A stretch of DNA of 64,000 nucleotides from Planctomycetota bacterium (GCA_003388505.1 QQVO01000013.1:134896-198895), one strand, 5' to 3'; shown: positions 2,478-57,055, numbered from the stretch's first letter. The notes: a model not told the origin generated them from the sequence alone. Made by a program: numbers and translations.

Positions 2478-5324
2478 TCAGTTGGTCCGCGCCCGCGAAC
2501 GCAGGGCGCCGCCGATGCGGTCGAGCGGCAGAGAGTCGTCCACGTCTGTGCGGCCCTCGAGCCGAGAGTCCTGCCGGGGCAACGGCTCTGCGGACGCCGG
2601 AACCTGGACCTTCCCGGGCGGTCTGTGGGGCTCTTCGATGATCCCGGTCCGGCTCTCTGCGGGGAATCCGTTCAGGAAGACGCGAGATTCCCCGTCTGCC
2701 GAATCCGAGGTTCGAGCGTTCGCCATCGGCGTCAGGGTCGGCCCGTCCTCTTCCAGCCACGCCGGCGGAACGGGCGGTGGCAAGGGGGTGCCTTCAACCG
2801 GGACGGGGTCAGAAATCAACAGGGGAACGTCAATCCACAGACCGTGATCGTCCAGTTGCATCATTCCGAGTTCACGATACAGCAACATCCGGGTGCTGTA
2901 GTGGTTGAGCCACACGCTCATCAGGTTGTTCTGAGCGCTCCGCAGGTCGGACAGAGCGAACAGGAGATTCTGAGCGGCCGTGGGCCCCAGAACGTTCGGC
3001 GGCTCTCCCGGTTGCGGCGGCGCGACCGGTCGATTGAGCGCCTCGCGCGTCTGATCCACGCGCCGGATCGCAATCGCGACAGCGCGTCGCTGAATCTCCA
3101 GATTGATGCTCAGTTGGTCGAGATTCCGCAGCAGATTGCGAAGGGTCTGATGAACGCTGTCCTCGAACTGAATGAGTTGCCGCCGCGACTGCTGATAGTC
3201 GATCAACTGCTGACGAAAGTTGTTTCGCTCGACGAGCCGCGTGAGAGGCGGGTCGAACTCCACCGCAGCCCTGAGAGAGTTGCCGTTTTCGTCGAAACCG
3301 AACGGCCGGTTGACCGTTGTGACCGAATCGCCGTCAACGCGAATCGTGAGGTTCGACTTGAGCGCGTTGGCGTTGAACTCAATCAGCCGCCAGGTGTCGA
3401 CAAGCGACGCCCGGTTGTTCATCCAATCCAGGCGGTTGGCCCGCGCGATCTCGAGTGCGAATTGCGGCGAGAGGTCGATTGGTTCCACGACGATCCGTTC
3501 GACCCGCGCACGGGCCTGTACAAGTCCCACGTCGTTCGCGATCCCCTGCAACTCGGCGATCAGTTCCACAATCTGGTTTGCGGCCGTCTCGTCCGGTTCG
3601 GCCTCGCGCAATGCTTCCACGTCCGGCTTGGTCAGCAGGAAGCGGTTCTCAAGATCCGCCAGCGACTCCCGCAATCGTTCGCGGTCTCGATCAAACAGCG
3701 ATTGTTCTTCCGGTTCCATCGTCCGCTTTCGCTGATCGCTCACAGCGTCCAGCGCGTCGAGTTCGGGCGGCGTGGCGTCCAGAAGCCCTCCGATCTCCTC
3801 GCGAACTGCGATGATTGCGTCGAGAGTGGTTGAGAGATCCTCACTCGACAGTTCCTCCGGCAGGTCGCCGAATTCGCTGAGAATGGCCGCGAGTTCCGAC
3901 TGAATGTCGCTCACGTCCTGTCCCAGCAGCCGAAACGGCTGGATGAAGGAGTCATCCAGTTCGACGGGCAAGTCCGGCGGCAGCCCGAGCGTGCCGCTCT
4001 TGAAGGAATCCAGCGACGACTGCAGGCTGTTTCGCGCCTGGAGCAATGTGGCGCGTTCGGTTTCGATGTTCTGGCGAAACTGGTCGACCTGCGCGATGTC
4101 GATCAGGCCGGCGTCCAGATTGGCTTCCAGCAGCGCGAGCGTGCGCAGTTGCGCCGTCAGGCTTTCTTCGGAGTTGCGAATCTGCTGCAACTGTTGCAGC
4201 AGTCCGATGAATCCACCGACCGTGCCCGCCCCTCCGCCGGCAAACCCCGCGCCTCCTCCTCCTCCGCCGCCACCGCCGAAGAATCCACGGCCGAATCCGG
4301 CCGCCGAACCGACACCGGCGAATCCGCCGCTTCCCAATCCGGTGAAACCGGTGAAGCCGGCGCCGAAGAAGCCGCCGCGCCGCTGCGGTCCGCCGACATT
4401 GCCCTCCCCGATCGCGACATCGGTGTAAAAGCCGTGCCGGTATCTTTCAAACGCGCGGAGGTTGGCCAGCAGCACACGCTCGCTGAGCGTCAGTTGCTCG
4501 AGTCCGACGGCTCGTCCGCCGGCGCGAAGCAGCGGCTGCACAAAACTGAAATTCAGAATCGACGTGGTGATGTGGCTGTCCGTCCCGGTGAACTCCCAAA
4601 TCGTGGTGTTCGCGAACCCGACCAGCAGTTCTGCCGCGCTCGCCAGGCTTCGTCCGGCCGCCGCCGTCGCGCTCGCTGGAGGCGAACCGGCGGTGGCCAA
4701 CCGGTCGTCCAGATTCGCAGACGTGTCCCAGACGAGTCGATTCTGCTCACCTCCCGGCCGCTTGCGCCCCAGGTGCTCATACGCCAGAGTGGTGCCGGCG
4801 AAAAACTGTGTGTCGAAGCGAAAACGTTCCGTGCTCACGTCCAGCGCGGAGAGATAAATCGTCTCGAGTTGTTCCTGGTAGTCCGGCGAATTGATTCGCG
4901 CAATGCGGACGGAGTCTTCGAGGCGCAGCACGAGCTTGCCGTCGGGAGTCACCTCGGCGTAGCGCCCCAGACACTGCCGCCAGAAGGGGCTCTCCAAGTC
5001 GTGTACGTGGCCGTAGTCGTCCCAGCCGGAGTACCCCTTCTTGCCGTCGACCCATCTCATCAACTGGTGCGACGCCGGATCGTCGGGAGGCATCGGCGGG
5101 AAGTCCGGATCGTGGACGTTGGCGTATCGGCTGCGGGGGTCGACCTCGATCGTGAAGTCCCTGAGATCCCAACGCGGGTCGTTCGATTTCTCAAGGACCA
5201 GAACGGCGACTTCTTCATCCGCGCGGCGTCGATAGAACGTGCGGTTGCAGCCGCTGGTTGCCGTCAGCAGAATTGCCGCGACAAGGGGCGCTCCAATCAG
5301 GCAGCGCATCGCGGCAGGTGTCAT
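2478..5324 (-). CDS. TolC-like outer membrane efflux protein (OMF) with a Gly-rich insert; probable lipoprotein
   Basis: 948 aa. It has a signal peptide with a lipobox (LLTATSGC), a GAGGGG RBS before the ATG at 5324, OMF-like helical repeats (LTLSERVLLANLRAFERYRHGF; LLQQLQQIRNSEESLTAQLRTLALLEANL; RATLLQARNSLQSSLDSFK), and a poly-Gly tract. It is co-oriented immediately upstream of the HlyD and MacB-like genes. Confidence 0.55.
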   Translation of the reverse strand: MTPAAMRCLIGAPLVAAILLTATSGCNRTFYRRRADEEVAVLVLEKSNDPRWDLRDFTIEVDPRSRYANVHDPDFPPMPPDDPASHQLMRWVDGKKGYSGWDDYGHVHDLESPFWRQCLGRYAEVTPDGKLVLRLEDSVRIARINSPDYQEQLETIYLSALDVSTERFRFDTQFFAGTTLAYEHLGRKRPGGEQNRLVWDTSANLDDRLATAGSPPASATAAAGRSLASAAELLVGFANTTIWEFTGTDSHITTSILNFSFVQPLLRAGGRAVGLEQLTLSERVLLANLRAFERYRHGFYTDVAIGEGNVGGPQRRGGFFGAGFTGFTGLGSGGFAGVGSAAGFGRGFFGGGGGGGGGAGFAGGGAGTVGGFIGLLQQLQQIRNSEESLTAQLRTLALLEANLDAGLIDIAQVDQFRQNIETERATLLQARNSLQSSLDSFKSGTLGLPPDLPVELDDSFIQPFRLLGQDVSDIQSELAAILSEFGDLPEELSSEDLSTTLDAIIAVREEIGGLLDATPPELDALDAVSDQRKRTMEPEEQSLFDRDRERLRESLADLENRFLLTKPDVEALREAEPDETAANQIVELIAELQGIANDVGLVQARARVERIVVEPIDLSPQFALEIARANRLDWMNNRASLVDTWRLIEFNANALKSNLTIRVDGDSVTTVNRPFGFDENGNSLRAAVEFDPPLTRLVERNNFRQQLIDYQQSRRQLIQFEDSVHQTLRNLLRNLDQLSINLEIQRRAVAIAIRRVDQTREALNRPVAPPQPGEPPNVLGPTAAQNLLFALSDLRSAQNNLMSVWLNHYSTRMLLYRELGMMQLDDHGLWIDVPLLISDPVPVEGTPLPPPVPPAWLEEDGPTLTPMANARTSDSADGESRVFLNGFPAESRTGIIEEPHRPPGKVQVPASAEPLPRQDSRLEGRTDVDDSLPLDRIGGALRSRARTN

Positions 5325-6457: not shown

Positions 6458-6540
6458 GGGTTCTCACGGGAGCACGAATCCCGCACGGTTTCGTGCGGAT
6501 CTGCGATCCAGCCAACCCCAGGAAACAGCCCTGACAGGGG
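6458..6540. repeat. short structured intergenic repeat, family 2, copy 1 (hairpin CCGCACGGTTTCGTGCGG plus CCCTGACAGGG box)
   Basis: GGTTCTCACGGGAGCACGAATCCCGCACGGTTTCGTGCGG...GAAACAGCCCTGACAGGGGG recurs at 24496-24563 and 24634-24713 with 1-3 substitutions in the core. Confidence 0.4.
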
Positions 6541-8417: not shown

Positions 8418-9809
8418 ATGAAACGCAAGATGTGGATGCCGATTCTGGCCGCCATTTTATGGTGGTCGACGCCGGACGCCGCCGACGCCGGCGCGTTCTG
8501 CGGAGTCGGGGGATACGATGACTGTCCCCCCGGTTGTTGTGCGCCCAGCGGCGACTACTGCCAGGCGCGCGTGACCCATTGCCCCAGCTACAAGACGGTG
8601 CATGAAACCGTCTGGGAAACCGAAGAGTACTGCTGCCCACAGACTGTCTATGACACCTGTGTGGAGAAGGTGCCGGTCACCTGCACCCGCACGGTCTACG
8701 ACACCTGCTACCGCGACGAGTGCTACACCGTCTGCAAGCCGTGCTACAAGACCTGCTACCGCACGGAATGCTACACGGTCAAGAAGCCCTGCTACAAGAC
8801 GTGCTACCGCACTGTGTGCTGCAAGGTCCGCAAGCCCTGCTACAAGACGTGCTACCGCGACGTCTGCTTCACGGTCTGCCGGCCGTGCTACAAGACGTGC
8901 TACCGAGACGTCTGCTGCACAGTCCGCAAGCCCTGCTACAAGACCTGCTACCGCGACGTCTGCTGCACCACGTACCGTACCGAGTACGACACCTGCTACC
9001 GGGACGTCTGCTACACAGTGTGCCGGCCTGTGACCGAAACGCGGTGCGTTGACGTCTGCTGCGGCGAGTGGAAGACCGTTTCCCAGTACATCCCCGGACC
9101 GGTCGTCGAGCGCTGCGTGCAGGATCCCGGACACCTGGTGTGGGACCCCAACGGTTGCTGCTGCACCTATGATCCCGGCTGCTGCCGCACGGTCAAAGTG
9201 CAATGCCCCGGCCGCACGGTCTGCCGCAAGGTGTGGTGTCCGAAGATCGTCAAGAAAGAGGTCTGCTGCACGCGTTACGTGCAGGAAGTGAAGCACTGCC
9301 GCGTGCCGTACACCGTCTGCCGGCAGGTTCCCTGCACAACGACCAAGCGGGTGCCCTACACCACCTGCACCTGGACCTGTGAAACCCGCGTCAAGCGCGT
9401 CCCCTACACCACCTGCCACATGGTCCGCGAGACCTGCACCAAGAAGGTTCCCTACACAACCTGCACCTGGCATGAGGAGTGCGTGAGCAAGCGGGTGCCC
9501 TACACGACCTGCACCTGGACCTGCGAAACCCGCACGAAGTGTGTGCCCTACACGACGTGTGAAATGCGGACCGAAACCCGGACCCGCAAGGTTCCCTACT
9601 GCGTGCCGCGCCAGGTCTGCGAAACGCGATACGTGTCCCGCACCAAATGCGTGCCGCGCACCGTGATGGTCAAGAAGACCCGCTGCGTGCCGCGAGTCGT
9701 CTGCCGGCAGGTTCCCGTCGACCCCGGCTGTGCGGCTCCCACGTGCTGTGCACCGACGTGCGTGGCTCCCGCACAGTGCGCTGCACCGACCTGTGAGGCG
9801 CCTCACTAG
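8418..9809 (+). CDS. secreted cysteine-rich repeat protein, YTV-domain family (planctomycete)
   Basis: Signal peptide MKRKMWMPILAAILWWSTPDAADA. About 20% of residues are Cys. There are tandem 21-aa repeats CYTVxKPCYKTCYRxxC and a second repeat type VPYTTCTWTCETRxKR. This matches the YTV repeats described for Rhodopirellula secreted proteins. A GAGGA RBS precedes it and a strong terminator lies downstream. Confidence 0.75.
   Translation: MKRKMWMPILAAILWWSTPDAADAGAFCGVGGYDDCPPGCCAPSGDYCQARVTHCPSYKTVHETVWETEEYCCPQTVYDTCVEKVPVTCTRTVYDTCYRDECYTVCKPCYKTCYRTECYTVKKPCYKTCYRTVCCKVRKPCYKTCYRDVCFTVCRPCYKTCYRDVCCTVRKPCYKTCYRDVCCTTYRTEYDTCYRDVCYTVCRPVTETRCVDVCCGEWKTVSQYIPGPVVERCVQDPGHLVWDPNGCCCTYDPGCCRTVKVQCPGRTVCRKVWCPKIVKKEVCCTRYVQEVKHCRVPYTVCRQVPCTTTKRVPYTTCTWTCETRVKRVPYTTCHMVRETCTKKVPYTTCTWHEECVSKRVPYTTCTWTCETRTKCVPYTTCEMRTETRTRKVPYCVPRQVCETRYVSRTKCVPRTVMVKKTRCVPRVVCRQVPVDPGCAAPTCCAPTCVAPAQCAAPTCEAPH
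8700..9000 (+). repeat. intragenic 63-bp tandem DNA repeats (about 5 copies) encoding the YTV repeat units
   Basis: The unit TGCTACAAGACGTGCTACCGC...CGCAAGCCC recurs with a 63-nt period. A second 60-63-nt periodic block lies at about 9340-9600. Confidence 0.5.
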
Positions 9810-15346: not shown

Positions 15347-15355
15347 TTAGCCCGT

Positions 15356-15662
15356 GCAGAACAGGTTTCGAACCCTGTCGTCTGCACACAACTCGAAATC
15401 ATGCTAGCTCCTTCAACGCCGCGCGGTCGCCAATCGTACGCTGAAGGCGTACGACAGCGGAGCCCAGGGTGAGCGGCGCAGCCGCGTCACCCTGGGTTGT
15501 CGTGGGCAAGGATTCCGTGAACTCTGAAAGAGTTCCACAGTGACGCGCCGCAGCCTGTCGAACGCCTTCAGCGTTCCTGCACGCGCGCCAACCTCAAACC
15601 GGGGGTGCGCTCCTGTCGTCGCGACCCCCGGCTTTGCTGTGCGACGTCTTCAACGTCGCTCG
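15356..15662. repeat. about 300-nt structured intergenic element, family 1, copy A
   Basis: Ordered hairpins: GCAGAACAGG-TTTCGAAC-CCTGTCGTCTGC; GTACGC-TGAAG-GCGTAC; CCCAGGGTGA...TCACCCTGGG; GAACTCTGAAAGAGTTC; CCGGGGGT...ACCCCCGG; GCGACG-TCTTCAA-CGTCGC. It is collinear with 51390-51680. Confidence 0.5.
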
Positions 15663-15829
15663 CCGTCAGCGTTTCTGGCCAACGTAATGCGACGGTTTCG
15701 GGAAGAGTTGTGTGTCACTGGCAGGCTGCGAGCGCCCTCCTGTACGAATGTCATGACTTTCCAAACTGGCCCCCGACGCGCTGATCTGGTAACCGTGTGA
15801 GCGGTCAGCAGGCATTCCAGGGGACGGGC

Positions 15830-21076: not shown

Positions 21077-22981
21077 ATGCAACCACGACGATTCCCCGAA
21101 CAGATCGCCCTGTGCACAATCTGCATGGTGCTCTCAGGCACCCTGACCGCCGAGGAGCCGAAACTCTCGCCCGCCGAGAAACGGGCCGGCTGGCAATTGC
21201 TCTTCGACGGGGAATCAACCGCAGGCTGGCGGAACTTCAAACAGGAGGGAATCAGCGACGGCTGGGAAGTTCAGGACGGCGCGCTGGTTCGCGCCTCCGA
21301 TGGCGCAGGCGACATTATCACCACCGAACAGTTCGACAACTTCGAACTCTCCATCGAGTACAGGATCTCTCCCGAAAGCAACAGCGGCATCATGTTTCAT
21401 GTGTCGGAAGAGGGAGACGCCCCGTGGCACACCGGACCCGAAATCCAGATCCAGGACAACCTCAATGGGCACGACCCCCAATTGTCCGGTTGGCTCTACC
21501 AGCTCTACAAGCCGCCCGTCGATCCCGGCACCGGGGAAATCGCCGACGCCACCCGGCCCCCCGGTGAATGGAACCACATCCACTTGCGAGTCACCGAGAC
21601 GGAGTGCGAGATCAACCTCAACGGCTACCGCTACGCCCGCTTCCAACTCGGCAGCGACGACTGGAAACAGCGCGTGGCCCAGAGCAAGTTCGCCGACATG
21701 CCCCTCTTCGGAAAGACCGGCAAGGGCCACATCTGCCTGCAGGACCACGGCGATGAGGTCGCCTATCGCAACATCAAGATCCGTGAACTGCCGGCCGACG
21801 GCAGCGTCCCCAACCCGGTCGACGGAGAACTCGCGCTCCAGCCGGAACTCGCATTCCCGAATCTCGAATGGGACGGCTGGGAACCGATCACCGAGCGCGG
21901 CCTGCCGCGCCCGTTCCGTCCGATCGTACTCACGCACGCCGGCGACGGGTCGAACCGCATCTTCGTCGCAGACCAGTGGGGCGCGATCTATGTCTTCGAC
22001 AACGACCCGGAGGTCACCGAATCGACCCTCTTCCTCGATATCCGCGACCGCGTGCAGTACAGCGACAACCAGAACGAGGAAGGTCTGCTCGGGCTCGCGC
22101 TGCATCCCGACTACAAGAACAACGGCGAGTTCTTCGTGTACTACACCACGCGCGACGCCGAGCACACCTCAGTCGTTTCCCGCTTCCACGTCTCAGAGGA
22201 CGACCCGAACCGCGCCGATCCCTCTTCAGAAGAAGAGTTGATGCGCATTCCGCAGCCGTTCTGGAATCATAACGGCGGCACCGTCTGCTTCGGTCCCGAC
22301 GGCTATCTGTACATCGGACTCGGCGACGGCGGCGCGGCGAACGATCCGCTCGAAAACGCGCAGAACCTCAATACCTGGCTCGGGTCGATCCTGCGGATCG
22401 ACGTCGACCGGCAGGAAGACGGCAAAGCGTACGCGATTCCCGACGACAACCCGTTCGTCAACCAGACCGACGCGCAACCTGAGATCTATGCCTACGGCTT
22501 GAGAAACGTCTGGCGGATTTCATTCGACCGCGAGACCGGAGCACTCTGGTGCGGCGACGTCGGACAGAACCTCTGGGAGGAGATCGACCTGATCGTCAGT
22601 GGCGGCAACTACGGATGGGCATTGCGGGAAGGATCGCATCCCTTCGGCCCGGAGGGCGTCGGACCCCGCGACGACCTGATCGAGCCGATCTGGGAATACG
22701 ATCACCAGGTCGGCAAGTCGATCACCGGCGGCGTGGTCTACCGGGGCAAACGCCTGCCCGAACTCCAGGGCAAGTACGTCTACGCCGACTACGTCACCGG
22801 CCGCATCTGGGCCCTCGACTACGACGAAGACGCCGGGGAAGTCGTCTCCAACGAGGCCATCCCCTCGCCGGGCGGAACGGCCATCATCTCCTTCGGCGAA
22901 GACGAACAGGGCGAAGTCTACTACACGATCGTCGCCGCCGACGGACGGGGCATCTATCGTTTCGTTCCGACCGGCGAGTAA
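21077..22981 (+). CDS. DUF1080 (3-keto-disaccharide hydrolase-like) domain fused to a PQQ-dependent sugar dehydrogenase (SGDH beta-propeller)
   Basis: Signal peptide after MQPRRFPEQ. The DUF1080 hallmark ...HICLQDHGDEVAYRNIKIRELP is present. The SGDH motifs are present (GLLGLALHPDY, GGTVCFGPDGYLYIGLGDGG, GLRNVWRISFD, GGNYGW). Confidence 0.8.
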   Translation: MQPRRFPEQIALCTICMVLSGTLTAEEPKLSPAEKRAGWQLLFDGESTAGWRNFKQEGISDGWEVQDGALVRASDGAGDIITTEQFDNFELSIEYRISPESNSGIMFHVSEEGDAPWHTGPEIQIQDNLNGHDPQLSGWLYQLYKPPVDPGTGEIADATRPPGEWNHIHLRVTETECEINLNGYRYARFQLGSDDWKQRVAQSKFADMPLFGKTGKGHICLQDHGDEVAYRNIKIRELPADGSVPNPVDGELALQPELAFPNLEWDGWEPITERGLPRPFRPIVLTHAGDGSNRIFVADQWGAIYVFDNDPEVTESTLFLDIRDRVQYSDNQNEEGLLGLALHPDYKNNGEFFVYYTTRDAEHTSVVSRFHVSEDDPNRADPSSEEELMRIPQPFWNHNGGTVCFGPDGYLYIGLGDGGAANDPLENAQNLNTWLGSILRIDVDRQEDGKAYAIPDDNPFVNQTDAQPEIYAYGLRNVWRISFDRETGALWCGDVGQNLWEEIDLIVSGGNYGWALREGSHPFGPEGVGPRDDLIEPIWEYDHQVGKSITGGVVYRGKRLPELQGKYVYADYVTGRIWALDYDEDAGEVVSNEAIPSPGGTAIISFGEDEQGEVYYTIVAADGRGIYRFVPTGE

Positions 22982-24438: not shown

Positions 24439-24495
24439 CGAAAACTCCTCTGCGGCGTCAACCGGGAACTGATGGAACGGCAAGCAAGTGGGAAC

Positions 24496-24713
24496 ACGAA
24501 TCCGGCACGGTTTCGTGCGGCGTACCACGGTTCACGCATCCCTCGACAGAGCCCGACACAGGGCGCTTCGGATGCGCGGCGCGCCGGTCTGCTTAAAAGG
24601 CAGACGCGGCGACGTGCTTTGATTGGGGAAAGGGAGGTTAGGTGGTTCTCAGGGGAGCGCGAATTCCGCAGGGTCTCGTGCGAATGAGCCGTCCGGCCTT
24701 CCTGAAAACAAAG
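24496..24713. repeat. two tandem copies of the family-2 structured repeat (24496-24563 and 24634-24713) in a divergent promoter region
   Basis: ACGAATCCGGCACGGTTTCGTGCGG...CCCGACACAGGG and GGTTCTCAGGGGAGCGCGAATTCCGCAGGGTCTCGTGCGAA...AGCCCTGACTGGG. Compare 6458-6540. There is also a GTCTGC-TTAAAAG-GCAGAC hairpin at about 24580-24600. Confidence 0.4.
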
Positions 24714-36199: not shown

Positions 36200-38476
36200 T
36201 TACCGGCCGCTCGGCTGCAACTGCGCAATCCAGTCGGCGATCCGCTGCAGGGCGCGTGTGTCGGCGACGGTCGACGCCAGCACCGGCATCTGTCCCGGTC
36301 CGCGCAGTTCCATTCGCAACAGCAATTCCGAGTCGCGGGGCCGTCCCGGCGAGACCAGAAACGAAGCCGGCTCTCTGGACGAACGCGTGCCGCGCGGTGG
36401 CACGCCGATCAACGCCATCCGCTCAAGTGGAGTGTGATACCGCAGGTCGATCGGTGAATTCCCCGGACCTCCCGGCGCGTGGCAGAACGCGCAGTTCACG
36501 TCGAGATAGGCCCGCACCAGGCGTTCGTTCTCATCCGGCGAAGACGCGTCAGCGCTCCACTCCGGGTAAGCCTCCCAGGTCGCGGCATCTTCCGGCAGCG
36601 GTGCGGAGAAGACACCCATCGCCGCGAGTGCGGCGATCTGGTTGACCGGTCCCTCGCCGTAATCGTGATCGCGATTGAGTTGCCGGGTATTCAGACTCAG
36701 TACAAACCCGCCGGCCGCCGTGTGGCACGCCTTGCAGTCCGAGCGGCCGGGGTAATACCAGTGCTGCGTCGTCGCGCCGTCGCCGGTTTCGATCTCGAAC
36801 GACTCGGTCGTCGCCACGTCGCTCAGGAACGCGTCGGTCTGTTCGTCGTTCCACAGGTAGGTGTAACCTTCCCAGCCGTAGGGACTGTTCACCAGCAGCC
36901 GAGTTTCCAGGCGCCTCTGCGTCGAAGGGTCGTCGCGCTTCATGTCCAGCGAAAACGTCTTCACGATGACGCTCCCCTGCGGAAACTCCCACTGCCCCGT
37001 CTCGGAGAACTGCACCTGACCACCGGCCGGGAGCGCCACATAACGCTCCTTGCTCGCATGGTCCGACCACAGCGGCACGTTCACCGAGTACGGAATCATT
37101 CCGGGAACCGGTCGCAGCTCGGCCGTCGATTCGAACAGCCCCGTCTCCGAAAGCCGTGCTGGGAACCGGATCTCACCGCCGAGCAGATAGTCGGCGTTCT
37201 CCCGCAGGCGGTAGATGTTCCCGTCGAAGGCGCACAGATAAACCTCTCCGTCCCGGTCTTCGCCGAAACCGGCGATCTGCGCCTTGCTGCTGCAGATTTG
37301 CGTGTCGCTCGTCACCTGCCTTTCATCGGAGTCGTAACGGAGCGCCCACACGTTCCCCGTCACAAAGTCGGCATAGAGATACGCGCCATGCAGTTCCGGC
37401 AAACGGGAACCGCGGTAGACGCGGCCGCCGACCACGGCCCGCCCCTCGCTGTGAAAATACTCCGTGACCGGCGGATGCGTTCCGTCGTTCTCGGTCGGCG
37501 CGGTCGGAAAGAACCCCCAGTTGTCCGCCTCCTCCAGGGGATGGCGGCCTTCACGCTGGTTCCAGCCGTAATTGCCTCCCTTCACGATCAGGTTGACCTC
37601 TTCGTAGCGATCCTGTCCGACGTCGCCGCCCCAGAGTTGGCCGGTTTCACGATCGAACGCCAGCCGCCACACATTCCGGAAGCCGTATGCCCAGATTTCG
37701 CCCCGCGCTTCGTCCCCTCGACCCACGAACGGATTGTCGCTCGGGATTGCATACGGCAGGTCTCCGTCGACCGAATCGACGTCGATTCGCAAGACCGACC
37801 CGAGCAGCGTAGTCAGATCCTGGCCGTGCCCTTGCGGATCATTGGCCGAACCCCCGTCCCCCAGGCCGATGTACAGATATCCGTCTGGCCCGAACTCCAG
37901 CGATCCGCCGTTCTGCGTGCGAAACGGCTGGTCGATCGTCAGCAGCACTTCTTCGGAGTCTGCGTCGCCGCGAGCGGGGTCGTCGGCCGATACACGAAAC
38001 CGCGAAACCACGGTCTTCGGTCCCTCGGTCGAATAGCAGACGAAGAACTCGCCGTTCTCGGCGTACTCCGGATGAAACGCCAGCCCCAGCAGCCCCTCTT
38101 CGTTTCCGGACCGGGAGACCACGGTGGAGAGATCAAGAAACACATCGGTCGCATGCTCGTCCTCGCGATTCTCGAATGCGTGGACCTTCCCGTTTTGGCA
38201 CAACACAAACACGCGACTCGTCCCGTCCGGTGCATACAGCAGTTGCAGCGGCCGCTGATTCCCGAAGTTGAGTTGCGGAAACGCATTCTCGAGTTGATAG
38301 GCATAAGGCAGAGCCGTCAGCCGCGATGTATCGACCGGAATGAACCGGCTCCGCCCGGCTGCCGGTGCGACATCATCGCGGTCCCTCTCCCGACTGCGAT
38401 CGGAACCGCATGCAGAGGCGACCGTCAGCAGAGCGCAACACGCCAGAAGTCGAAGCCTCCTCACATCAGCACTCAT
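36200..38476 (-). CDS. PQQ-dependent sugar dehydrogenase (SGDH) fused to C-terminal c-type cytochrome domains
   Basis: Lipoprotein signal (LLTVASACGSD). SGDH motifs are present (GLLGLAFHPEY, GGSLEFGPDGYLYIGLGDGG, GFRNVWRLAFD, GGNYGW). Two CxxCH motifs are present (CKACH, CAFCH). Confidence 0.8.
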   Translation of the reverse strand: MSADVRRLRLLACCALLTVASACGSDRSRERDRDDVAPAAGRSRFIPVDTSRLTALPYAYQLENAFPQLNFGNQRPLQLLYAPDGTSRVFVLCQNGKVHAFENREDEHATDVFLDLSTVVSRSGNEEGLLGLAFHPEYAENGEFFVCYSTEGPKTVVSRFRVSADDPARGDADSEEVLLTIDQPFRTQNGGSLEFGPDGYLYIGLGDGGSANDPQGHGQDLTTLLGSVLRIDVDSVDGDLPYAIPSDNPFVGRGDEARGEIWAYGFRNVWRLAFDRETGQLWGGDVGQDRYEEVNLIVKGGNYGWNQREGRHPLEEADNWGFFPTAPTENDGTHPPVTEYFHSEGRAVVGGRVYRGSRLPELHGAYLYADFVTGNVWALRYDSDERQVTSDTQICSSKAQIAGFGEDRDGEVYLCAFDGNIYRLRENADYLLGGEIRFPARLSETGLFESTAELRPVPGMIPYSVNVPLWSDHASKERYVALPAGGQVQFSETGQWEFPQGSVIVKTFSLDMKRDDPSTQRRLETRLLVNSPYGWEGYTYLWNDEQTDAFLSDVATTESFEIETGDGATTQHWYYPGRSDCKACHTAAGGFVLSLNTRQLNRDHDYGEGPVNQIAALAAMGVFSAPLPEDAATWEAYPEWSADASSPDENERLVRAYLDVNCAFCHAPGGPGNSPIDLRYHTPLERMALIGVPPRGTRSSREPASFLVSPGRPRDSELLLRMELRGPGQMPVLASTVADTRALQRIADWIAQLQPSGR

Positions 38477-51295: not shown

Positions 51296-51389
51296 GGCGG
51301 GGTCCTTCAAAGCGGTGGGAATCAAGCATCCGGCAGCATACACCCACGCCCCCCACATCGCGAGCGGCGGGCGTGAGCCGCTCTTCGTA

Positions 51390-51680
51390 CGACAGGTTTT
51401 CAACCTGTCGAGTGGGCAAGATGAACCTCTCTCGGCGACACCCAACTCGCATTCAGTTCACCACAGCAGCCCCCGCCGGGGCGGTTTGTACGCTGAAGGC
51501 GTACCACAGCAGAGCCCAGCGTCAGCGGCGGAGCCGCGCCACGCTGGGTCAAGAGACGAGATGACCCCGGCACGAACTCTGAAGGAGTTCCACAGCCCCC
51601 TGTCGAACGCCTTCAGTGGACCGGGGGTGCGCTCCTGATGTCGCGACCCCCGGCTTTGCTGTGCGACGCTTACAGCGTCA
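51390..51680. repeat. about 300-nt structured intergenic element, family 1, copy B
   Basis: Same ordered hairpin set as 15356-15662: CGACAGG-TTTTCAA-CCTGTCG; GTACGC-TGAAG-GCGTAC; CCCAGCGT...ACGCTGGG; GAACTCTGAAGGAGTTC; CCGGGGGT...ACCCCCGG; GACGC-TTACA-GCGTC. Sequence identity is about 70-75%, with paired substitutions inside the stems. Confidence 0.5.
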
Positions 51681-51789
51681 CCCGTAACGAGAGTTCCGCG
51701 TTTTCGCCGCAGGACGAATTCGGGATGACCTGTGTGAATCGGACAGGATGGAATCTTGTCCTGCGCCAGGCGCGACCGCGCTCGCCTCG

Positions 51790-52777: not shown

Positions 52778-52853
52778 TTTCGGTTAGCTCAGTGGATAGA
52801 GCACCAGATTCGAGATCTGGAAGTCACGGGTTCAAATCCCGTACCGACCACCA
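52778..52853 (+). tRNA. tRNA-like gene, 76 nt with encoded CCA: Arg-type class-I body but anticodon CGA (Ser, UCG) and two mismatches at the acceptor top (possible pseudo/aberrant or remodelled tRNA)
   Basis: Manual fold: acceptor TTTCGGT/ACCGACC (pairs 1-72 and 2-71 are T-C mismatches); D arm GCTC-AGTGGATA-GAGC with A20; anticodon arm CCAGA-TTCGAGA-TCTGG; 5-nt variable loop; T arm ACGGG-TTCAAAT-CCCGT; A73 followed by CCA. Confidence 0.55.
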
Positions 52854-56854: not shown

Positions 56855-56925
56855 CGATCGCGGTGACGCAAGTTCGCGCCCCCGATTCGACCGTTCGAAT
56901 CTGGGGCGTTTTGCTATTTCGGGTG

Positions 56926-57021
56926 GCCGGGGCTGGACTGAGCGAAGCGAAGGAAGCCCCGGTCGACCGGCAACTCACGGACACCGGGGCTTCACTCCCC
57001 TTGGTCACTCCAGCCCCGGCC
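56926..57021. other. nested long palindrome between convergent genes (GGCCGGGGCTGGA...TCCAGCCCCGGCC enclosing GAAGCCCCGGT...ACCGGGGCTTC)
   Basis: Outer arms are 13 bp and inner arms about 11 bp. There is no U-run. It could be a bidirectional terminator or a REP-like structure. Confidence 0.4.
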
Positions 57022-57055
57022 ACCCCGTGGAGTCTCGGCGACGTCGCCCGCGGAC

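Follow-up and report, generated by a model that had tools for sequence, protein, structure and literature searches.

A dispersed palindromic intergenic element of a Planctomycetota bacterium, probably a gene-less derivative of a Y1-transposase element

Two copies of a hairpin-rich intergenic repeat, A and B, are contained in the 64-kb stretch of Planctomycetota DNA analyzed here (the window). Sequence comparisons give us good reason to believe that both are members of a dispersed, nonautonomous, palindromic family of ~390 nt, a gene-less derivative of a Y1-transposase element. As such, A and B belong to an ordinary class, the bacterial interspersed palindromic repeats; what is unusual is their nested form, and the phylum is under-studied. 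The observations behind this assignment are the dispersal of the element in multiple copies, its intergenic sites, a presence/absence difference, covariation of its hairpins, and linkage of its parts to Y1 genes in relatives. A first-pass annotation had proposed either a functional RNA or a mobile DNA of the MITE or REP/RAYT type. Our results support the mobile DNA, and the RNA alternative is not preferred.

Extent and architecture of the element

Copies A and B are homologous over ~300 nt (78% mean column identity; blastn E=1e-29) and have the same order of hairpins, as the first-pass annotation had described. No third copy was found within the 64-kb window. The folds of both copies surpassed those of dinucleotide shuffles (z = -4.4 for A and -5.1 for B). 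The original extent of ~300 nt was too short, and the full elements comprise ~390 nt. Copy A spans ~15355-15745 (plus strand), as seen in the alignment with B and with the copies L067, L027, and L087 described below. Copy B spans ~51386-51765 (plus strand), according to its alignment with A and to terminal arms at 51386-51409 and 51742-51765. Both are longer to the right than first described because a right-end inverted repeat (GAGTTGTGTG followed by a hairpin) mirrors the left end (a hairpin followed by CACACAACTC). These terminal inverted repeats, of which hairpin H1 forms the left outer part, are ~45 nt long. Dyad symmetry is a property of the family: L087, the best-preserved copy, scored 235 against its own reverse complement, versus 133 ± 12 for shuffles. 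Each copy is thus an imperfect palindrome.

Hairpin H1 had been compared to a tRNA T-arm/acceptor minihelix. ARAGORN and Rfam detected no tRNA-like feature at H1, and its stem sequence is unlike between copies (ACAGG..CCTGT, ACGGCC..GGCCGT, and GGTTC..GAACC). H1 instead makes up the left terminal inverted repeat and is matched by a partner at the opposite end of the element; the tRNA comparison was rejected.

From left to right, the element is composed of a terminal hairpin, module(+), hairpin(+), hairpin(-), module(-), and a second terminal hairpin. In each module, a small hairpin with a GAA loop is combined with a SACAG tag and a long GC hairpin (CCCAGGGT..ACCCTGGG type), the small unit often being joined to the GC hairpin via a linker of ~10 nt. 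Five small hairpins follow one design, with a 6- to 8-bp stem of variable sequence and a GAA-centered loop (TGAAG/TGAAA or the complement). The unpaired tag reads SACAG 3' of the GAA-loop hairpin, which corresponds to CTGTS 5' of the hairpin on the opposite strand. H2 and H4 are oriented one way, and H5, H7, and the H1 of B are oriented the opposite way. The H1 of A, which carries an insertion in its loop, falls outside this design. H6 and H7 together are the H2/H3 module in reverse, which gives a core composed, in order, of module(+), H4(+), H5(-), and module(-), with H4/H5 and module(+)/module(-) as inverted pairs.

In copy A, the left terminal hairpin H1 (15355-15386, plus strand) has a TGCAGA/TCTGCA outer stem and an ACAGG/CCTGT inner stem. 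The left inverted-repeat core CACACAACTC (15385-15394, plus strand), which is conserved in other copies, is the exact reverse complement of 15705-15714. Module(+) (15434-15496, plus strand) consists of H2 (15434-15454), the ACAG tag, the linker CGGAG, and the long GC hairpin H3 (CCCAGGGTGA..TCACCCTGGG, 15463-15496). It is followed by H4 (15519-15540, plus strand; GAACTC-TGAAA-GAGTTC with a CACAG tag), a unit that recurs in metagenome contigs, and by H5 (15555-15576, minus strand), in which a CTGTC tag precedes GAACGC-CTTCA-GCGTTC and which is 95% complementary to H2 with its tag. Module(-) (15599-15659, minus strand) contains H6 (15599-15631), the linker CTTTG, the CTGT tag, and H7 (15641-15659). 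The right end (15705-15742, plus strand) holds the inverted-repeat core GAGTTGTGTG at 15705-15714 and a degenerate terminal hairpin, CAGG..CCTG, at 15722-15742.

Copy B starts with the terminal hairpin CGACAGGTT-TTC-AACCTGTCG (51390-51410, plus strand). Its module(+) (51488-51548, plus strand) is composed of GTACGC-TGAAG-GCGTAC, CACAG, CAGAG, and CCCAGCGT..ACGCTGGG. H4 with its CACAG tag (51574-51595, plus strand), a remnant of H5 (51600-51616, minus strand; CTGTC and GAACGC-CTTCA-G), module(-) (51621-51681, minus strand), and the right terminal hairpin GGACAGGAT-GGA-ATCTTGTCC (51741-51761, plus strand) follow. The inner hairpin tags are separated by 14 nt in A and by 4 nt in B.

A covariance model of the module, named R1, was built from 34 sequences. 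In the window it gave exactly four matches, two per copy: 15437-15496 (46.2 bits, E=2e-8) and 15599-15657 on the minus strand (40.8 bits) in A, and 51489-51548 (36.4 bits, with a G-C to C-G compensatory change relative to A) and 51621-51679 (40.8 bits) in B. Hairpins with TGAAG, TGAAA, or complementary loops and a stem of at least 5 bp were likewise confined to A and B in the 64-kb window. With a stem cutoff of at least 4 bp, one site was added, which consists of two overlapping 4-bp CCGG hairpins at 4339-4360. No ORF with a Y1 match was detected inside A or B by tblastn, and consensus scans of the two copies revealed no sigma-70-like promoter, intrinsic terminator, or T-rich tail.

Copies, gene context, and a relative without copy B

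The window matches MAG contigs that bear the label Planctomycetota, and the homologues of a flanking gene have names indicative of Planctomycetaceae. A metagenome scan was performed with the pattern GNACNCTGAARGNGTNCSACAG, in which stem positions were left free. It yielded ERZ869936 contigs at 17-21x, the coverage of the contig that carries A. Further copies, for which the first-pass annotation had proposed to search the genome, were thereby found in the same organism: at least three are full copies, 80-90% identical, and at least four are partial. The full copies are L067 (90% identical to A over 288 nt), L027 (88.6% over 297 nt), and L087 (80% over 320 nt). Partial copies are present in L091, L093, L037, and at a second site in L087 (L087b). 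When the five full copies were compared, B was the deviating one, with 12-nt and 23-nt deletions relative to the other four. These two deletions in B had been mistaken for a 27-nt insertion in A. The 23-nt deletion takes out the 3' arm of H5.

Where flanking genes could be called on the basis of GC3, all copies were intergenic. Several of them start no more than ~12 nt after the upstream stop codon, and flanking gene pairs, where both genes were callable, are co-directional or convergent. Analysis of GC3 by frame placed A between two plus-strand genes and B between two minus-strand genes. Since both copies are on the plus strand, they have equal absolute orientation and opposite orientation relative to the flanking genes. 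This agrees with the first-pass annotation, and its argument that the difference speaks against a simple cis 5'-UTR element holds. The intergenic positions close to stop codons, the co-directional or convergent neighbors, and the very stable hairpins could also point to a host cis-acting device (a terminator, an insulator, an mRNA-stabilizing array, or a protein-binding site) that is selected at each site, as in some REP/BIME clusters. We consider such a device unlikely as the primary explanation, because A and B are not oriented alike with respect to their neighbors, the close relative L145 (see below) manages without B at the same locus, T-rich tails were not detected in A or B, and the linkage to Y1 genes would be left unexplained. 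A cis-acting role could be a secondary, acquired property.

The contig L145 (sample ERZ869938) encodes a protein 96% identical to the product of the gene beside B. Its intergenic spacer measures 158 nt, versus 494 nt in the window. Both flanks align, the ~390 nt of B are absent, and ~50 nt of unrelated sequence are found instead; R1 detected no module in L145. Relative to the window, the flanks resume at ~51389 and ~51778. These boundaries fit the extended element and not the coordinates first assigned to it. From the same sample, contig L018, with a coverage similar to that of L145, does carry A. A deletion in L145 would explain the difference equally well as an insertion in the window lineage. 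No target-site duplication was readable at the L145 site or at the copy ends, which are too divergent to place the junctions to the base. Of the two signs of mobility that had been suggested, empty sites and target-site duplications, the first is represented by L145, though not as a clean empty site, and the second was not seen.

Several independent assemblies break within A. Four contigs from different samples, one from SPAdes and three from Logan (L018, L021, L022, and L023), end at window positions 15592 and 15617, inside A at the module(-) boundary, showing that the repeat fragments the assemblies of this organism. Such breaks are the expected effect of a repeat on an assembly graph.

A collection of genomes, in which the source genome did not appear among the matches, was scanned with ACGCTGAAGGCGTWCSACAG. 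Ten of the 11 matches were chance occurrences in coding DNA; the remaining match, L004, comes from Planctomycetota and is a true relative. Scans of viral contigs gave chance matches alone or none. L004 (Planctomycetota MAG MFD09964.bin.2.7) contains a different local repeat, (G)CGCGGCGAAGCGCCGCGACCCCGGGCTTCGGGATG.AACCGCG.CAGCGGTAA, twice in 1.4 kb (320-370 and 1627-1690). This local repeat adjoins a 22-nt unit whose sequence is exactly that of H2 in B.

The gene that follows A has an orthologue (76% identity at the protein level) in L017, a contig that ends 397 nt upstream of the orthologue. The upstream region (1-397) contains a right-end-like piece, GATGTGTGTCAAC .. GGACAGGATGAAATCCTGTCC, and is without core modules, which suggests an old or mosaic occupation of the intergenic site of A.

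Other repeats and structures were noted in the window. Three copies of a 31-nt motif, GGGAGCACGAATCCCGCACGGTTTCGTGCGG, are located at 6468-6498, 24490-24520, and 24653-24683 and are 84-94% identical; the motif contains a GCACGAA..TTCGTGC hairpin, lies in apparently noncoding stretches, and is unrelated to the A/B element. At 56921-57025 there is a large hairpin with 43-nt arms that are 84% complementary (GGGTGGCCGGGGCTGGACTGAGCGAAGCGAAGGAAGCCCCGGT and its partner). Its left arm recurs in L037 at ~1890-1940, beside the partial element copy of the same organism, which suggests a second repeat family co-locating with the first. Long arrays with a 48-nt period (7, 4, and 4 copies, 60-80% identical), rich in TGC and ACC codons, occupy 8648-9600 and probably encode a 16-residue cysteine-containing repeat. 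Two inverted-repeat pairs ~15 kb apart (22073-22642 and 37538-38104; 175 nt with 71% and 71 nt with 77% complementarity) may be diverged paralogous genes on opposite strands. A tRNA-Ser(CGA) at 52778-52853, the sole find of ARAGORN and of Rfam at curated thresholds, is ~1 kb from B and has no evident relation to the element.

Covariation and linkage to Y1 transposase genes

Within the five copies of the same organism, two clean compensatory pairs were found, G-C to C-G in H3 and T-A to C-G in H7. Additional changes in H1 are messy and fall into a poorly aligned region, and B also has unpaired changes. In total, six pairs changed on both sides, versus 3.0 ± 1.3 in shuffles. The compensatory substitutions listed in the first-pass annotation are thus correct as examples but thin, because most stems are invariant and 15 of 500 shuffles reached the observed number. 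The covariation within the genome is weak.

The wider family was addressed with the free-stem pattern and with R1. Among the 133 unit matches listed for the pattern, both free pairs were Watson-Crick in 83 (~8 expected by chance), and all four base pairs occurred at both free positions. R1 detected 147 modules in 489 kb of unit-bearing loci, four of them in the window; in 369 kb of control loci, it detected the known A and B copies and nothing else. In an alignment of 134 distinct modules, fitted to the model, 97.9% of the cells paired, versus 80.7% in shuffles. Eleven of the 14 pairs changed on both sides, a result that none of 500 shuffles reached, and slid controls were far lower. The strong covariation thus stems from relatives in other metagenomes, and the conservation of structure over sequence that had been claimed for A and B is thin within the genome but strong across the wider family. 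A T.G closing pair was present 28 times, on the GAA-loop strand, which agrees with the folding of one particular strand, either as RNA or as single-stranded DNA.

An Rfam search, also proposed previously, aligned RF01687 (Acido-Lenti-1) over its full model length with window positions 15437-15496 on the minus strand, with 18.9 bits at a threshold of 37. Apart from this weak alignment, Rfam showed nothing on A or B, whether the threshold was the gathering one or permissive. RF01687 did not match the right module of A, and the scan of the whole window at the gathering threshold was empty for RF01687, so that B is without a threshold-level match. The threshold was passed by relatives, namely, L086 (54.3 bits), L142 (53.6 bits), L071 (39.1 bits), and L131 (38.9 bits), and modules flanking Y1 genes in L035 and L072 reached 30-34 bits. 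Judged from these alignments, the window module is a divergent relative of Acido-Lenti-1, a motif with 89 representatives that was described as an sRNA of Acidobacteria and Lentisphaerae and rated "probably RNA" (Weinberg et al. 2010, PMC2864571).

The copies could accordingly be paralogous genes of one or more structured trans-acting sRNAs, as which Rfam files Acido-Lenti-1. The full-length match, the hairpin covariation, and the T.G pairs on the GAA-loop strand would be in line with this explanation, which we nonetheless hold to be very improbable. In a palindromic element, modules are found on both strands of a single copy, and neither a sigma-70-like promoter nor an intrinsic terminator was found in A or B. 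Some copies are truncated or partial, B has lost one of its hairpins, and a close relative is without B. Moreover, modules bracket transposase genes, and covariation is equally expected for hairpins that are recognized as single-stranded DNA. Neither the sRNA nor the terminator/insulator explanation accounts for the transposase linkage or the palindromic two-strand layout. Either role may be a secondary property, and stem-loops that are transcribed may additionally serve as a terminator or stabilize RNA.

The derivation from a Y1-transposase element is suggested by the genes near related modules. Y1_Tnp (PF01797) was the joint most frequent Pfam family among 102 coding-like ORFs located within 600 nt of units, and tblastn detected Y1 homologues in eight loci. 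At six of these, units and GC hairpins lie no more than ~100 nt from the gene, on both sides of it in L035, L052, and L094; in L139 and L062, no unit is closer than ~340 nt. As a safeguard against sampling bias, four Y1 loci (L144, L149, L150, and L151) were picked by protein similarity only, and all four had modules on both sides. In L144, a Pirellulales MAG, a complete gene-less composite is present on either side of the Y1 gene. L149 has the order module(-), gene, module(+), and both L150 and L151 have the order module(+), hairpin(+), gene, hairpin(-), module(-). The latter is the layout of the window core with a central gene, and the window elements would therefore be the gene-less, MITE/REPIN-like form. 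Thus, homologs of the element parts, which had been expected in related genomes, are widespread there and flank Y1 genes.

The flanked Y1 proteins have 147-151 residues and contain the motifs DH[VI]H, WQ, and YIxNQxxHH (YIKNQKEHH, exact, in the L094 protein). Their nearest solved relatives are the TnpA proteins of ISDra2 and IS608. With 5,844 database proteins at E <= 1e-10, the family is large, and Pirellulales and Aeoliella are among the names represented; none of the best 120 of the 5,844 could be assigned to the source organism. A tblastn search of ~120 kb of sequence from this organism (the window and loci) revealed no Y1 gene, and a trans-acting partner is therefore assumed there. Neither a tnpB gene (Pfam on ORFs near units) nor an omega-RNA-like match (Rfam scan of the window) was detected.

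In the AT-rich contig L094, a 147-residue Y1 protein is encoded within 1600-2400 and bracketed by GAACCCTGAAAGGGTTC-CACAG and its inverted partner. Hairpins of the type CCCCGGGAT..ATCCCGGGG are present too, and the GC-rich unit is nearly unchanged in this genome, whose base composition is very different.

No counterpart of H1 or of its partner, the outer terminal parts, was seen near the Y1 genes of other taxa. Because of this, and because of the right-end-like piece in L017, the element may be a mosaic that was built stepwise rather than a single transposing unit. It is hardly credible that the element is an ordinary MITE, mobilized by a DDE transposase through recognition of the ~45-nt terminal inverted repeats (H1 and CACACAACTC): the repeats are clear and the DDE families PF01609 and PF13546 occur among ORFs near units in three loci, but these DDE matches are fewer than a specific partner would give, no target-site duplication was found, and the inner architecture, which is conserved, is that seen around Y1 genes.

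Proposed mechanism, implications, and comparison with known systems

The TnpA proteins of IS200/IS605 and the RAYT enzymes bind hairpins in single-stranded DNA and cut adjacent to a tag. By analogy, the hairpins of A and B would form in single-stranded DNA, and a Y1 transposase supplied in trans would bind them and cut beside the tag. The cognate transposase is presumably encoded in the source genome. Cutting would lead to the copying or movement of the element into intergenic DNA.

A by-product of more interest is that an sRNA motif of Rfam can likely be reclassified as a module recognized by a transposase. We see an even chance that, rather than being RNA genes, Acido-Lenti-1 and its longer relatives serve IS200-like Y1 transposases of the subclass 1.2 type as DNA recognition modules. 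They would then constitute one REPtron/REPIN-type system, including the nested gene-less 390-nt derivatives, across Planctomycetota, Acidobacteriota, Lentisphaerota, and an AT-rich, probably Bacteroidota, lineage. If this is true, a Y1 subclass described as being without REP gains its own repeats, and a large, little-characterized Y1 branch (the 5,844 proteins) is paired in a testable manner with a defined hairpin-plus-tag substrate. The assignment of A and B itself accounts for a conspicuous, structured repeat between the genes of a little-studied phylum, which would be selfish or domesticated DNA and not a regulator. Covariation alone is no proof of an RNA gene. Finally, the breaks that the repeats cause in metagenome assemblies bear on the quality of metagenome-assembled genomes.

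Acido-Lenti-1 and the window modules are both multicopy and share a two-hairpin module in which a linker of ~12 nt connects an 8-bp GC hairpin and a 5-bp UUC-loop hairpin. The flanking sequences given by Weinberg et al. show that the Lentisphaera copies lie in palindromic composite repeats. The window modules differ by long insertions in the GC hairpin and by longer small stems, and the Rfam entry is an sRNA without a link to a transposase.

REP, REPIN, and BIME sequences with their RAYTs resemble the element described here in that short extragenic hairpins with an unpaired conserved tag are present in many copies, form inverted doublets and clusters, and flank a small HUH/Y1 gene in a REPtron-like manner (here in relatives; PMC3733652, PMC6006769). 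The tag is CTGTS/SACAG here and GTAG/GTGG in REP/REPIN sequences, and the spreading unit is a nested composite of ~390 nt here and a doublet of ~100 nt in REPINs. Class 2 RAYTs have the signature YIxxNP, whereas the proteins flanked here have the IS200-like YIxNQxxHH. Two further candidates were rejected. The "CnGA" repeat of the class 3 Y1 of Solibacter (CnGAGCCGCGACCGTNAGGGAGCGG) is a different hairpin from the window units. In the CGTC-tagged REP superfamily, TGTC variants exist, but the 8- to 9-bp stems starting with A/T pairs and the reported absence of a transposase link misfit. Searching the literature for the literal unit sequences revealed nothing relevant.

With IS200/IS605 and their gene-less PATE derivatives, the element shares a Y1 HUH transposase of ~150 residues (here in relatives), hairpins at the ends, and the existence of gene-less forms. 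The end hairpins of IS200/IS605 have the same orientation on one strand and there are no terminal inverted repeats, whereas the flanks here are inverted; unlike autonomous members, A and B are without tnpA. TnpA-Y1 subclass 1.2 is defined by the signature DH[IV]H, WQ, and YI(K/E/A)NQxxHH and is listed as "REP: no" and as distributed among Cyanobacteria and Bacteroidetes (Quentin et al. 2018, PMC6006769). The flanked proteins of 147-151 residues have the same motifs; in contrast to that listing, their genes have hairpin modules as neighbors and are found in Planctomycetota (Pirellulales names).

TIRtrons, as described by Di Nocera et al. 2013 (PMC3733652), are tyrosine transposase genes within long, sometimes double-palindromic inverted repeats. 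Their dispersed copies form moderately abundant families, including one in the acidobacterium Koribacter versatilis. Planctomycetota composites of the kind found here are absent from that description. A Y1 gene within long, partly self-complementary inverted repeats, together with dispersed copies, was observed in the relatives L149, L150, L151, and L035, and the layouts of L149, L150, and L151 match the one described for TIRtrons/TIRYTs, to whose families they may belong. Among published accounts, that of the TIRtrons comes closest to the gene-bearing form.
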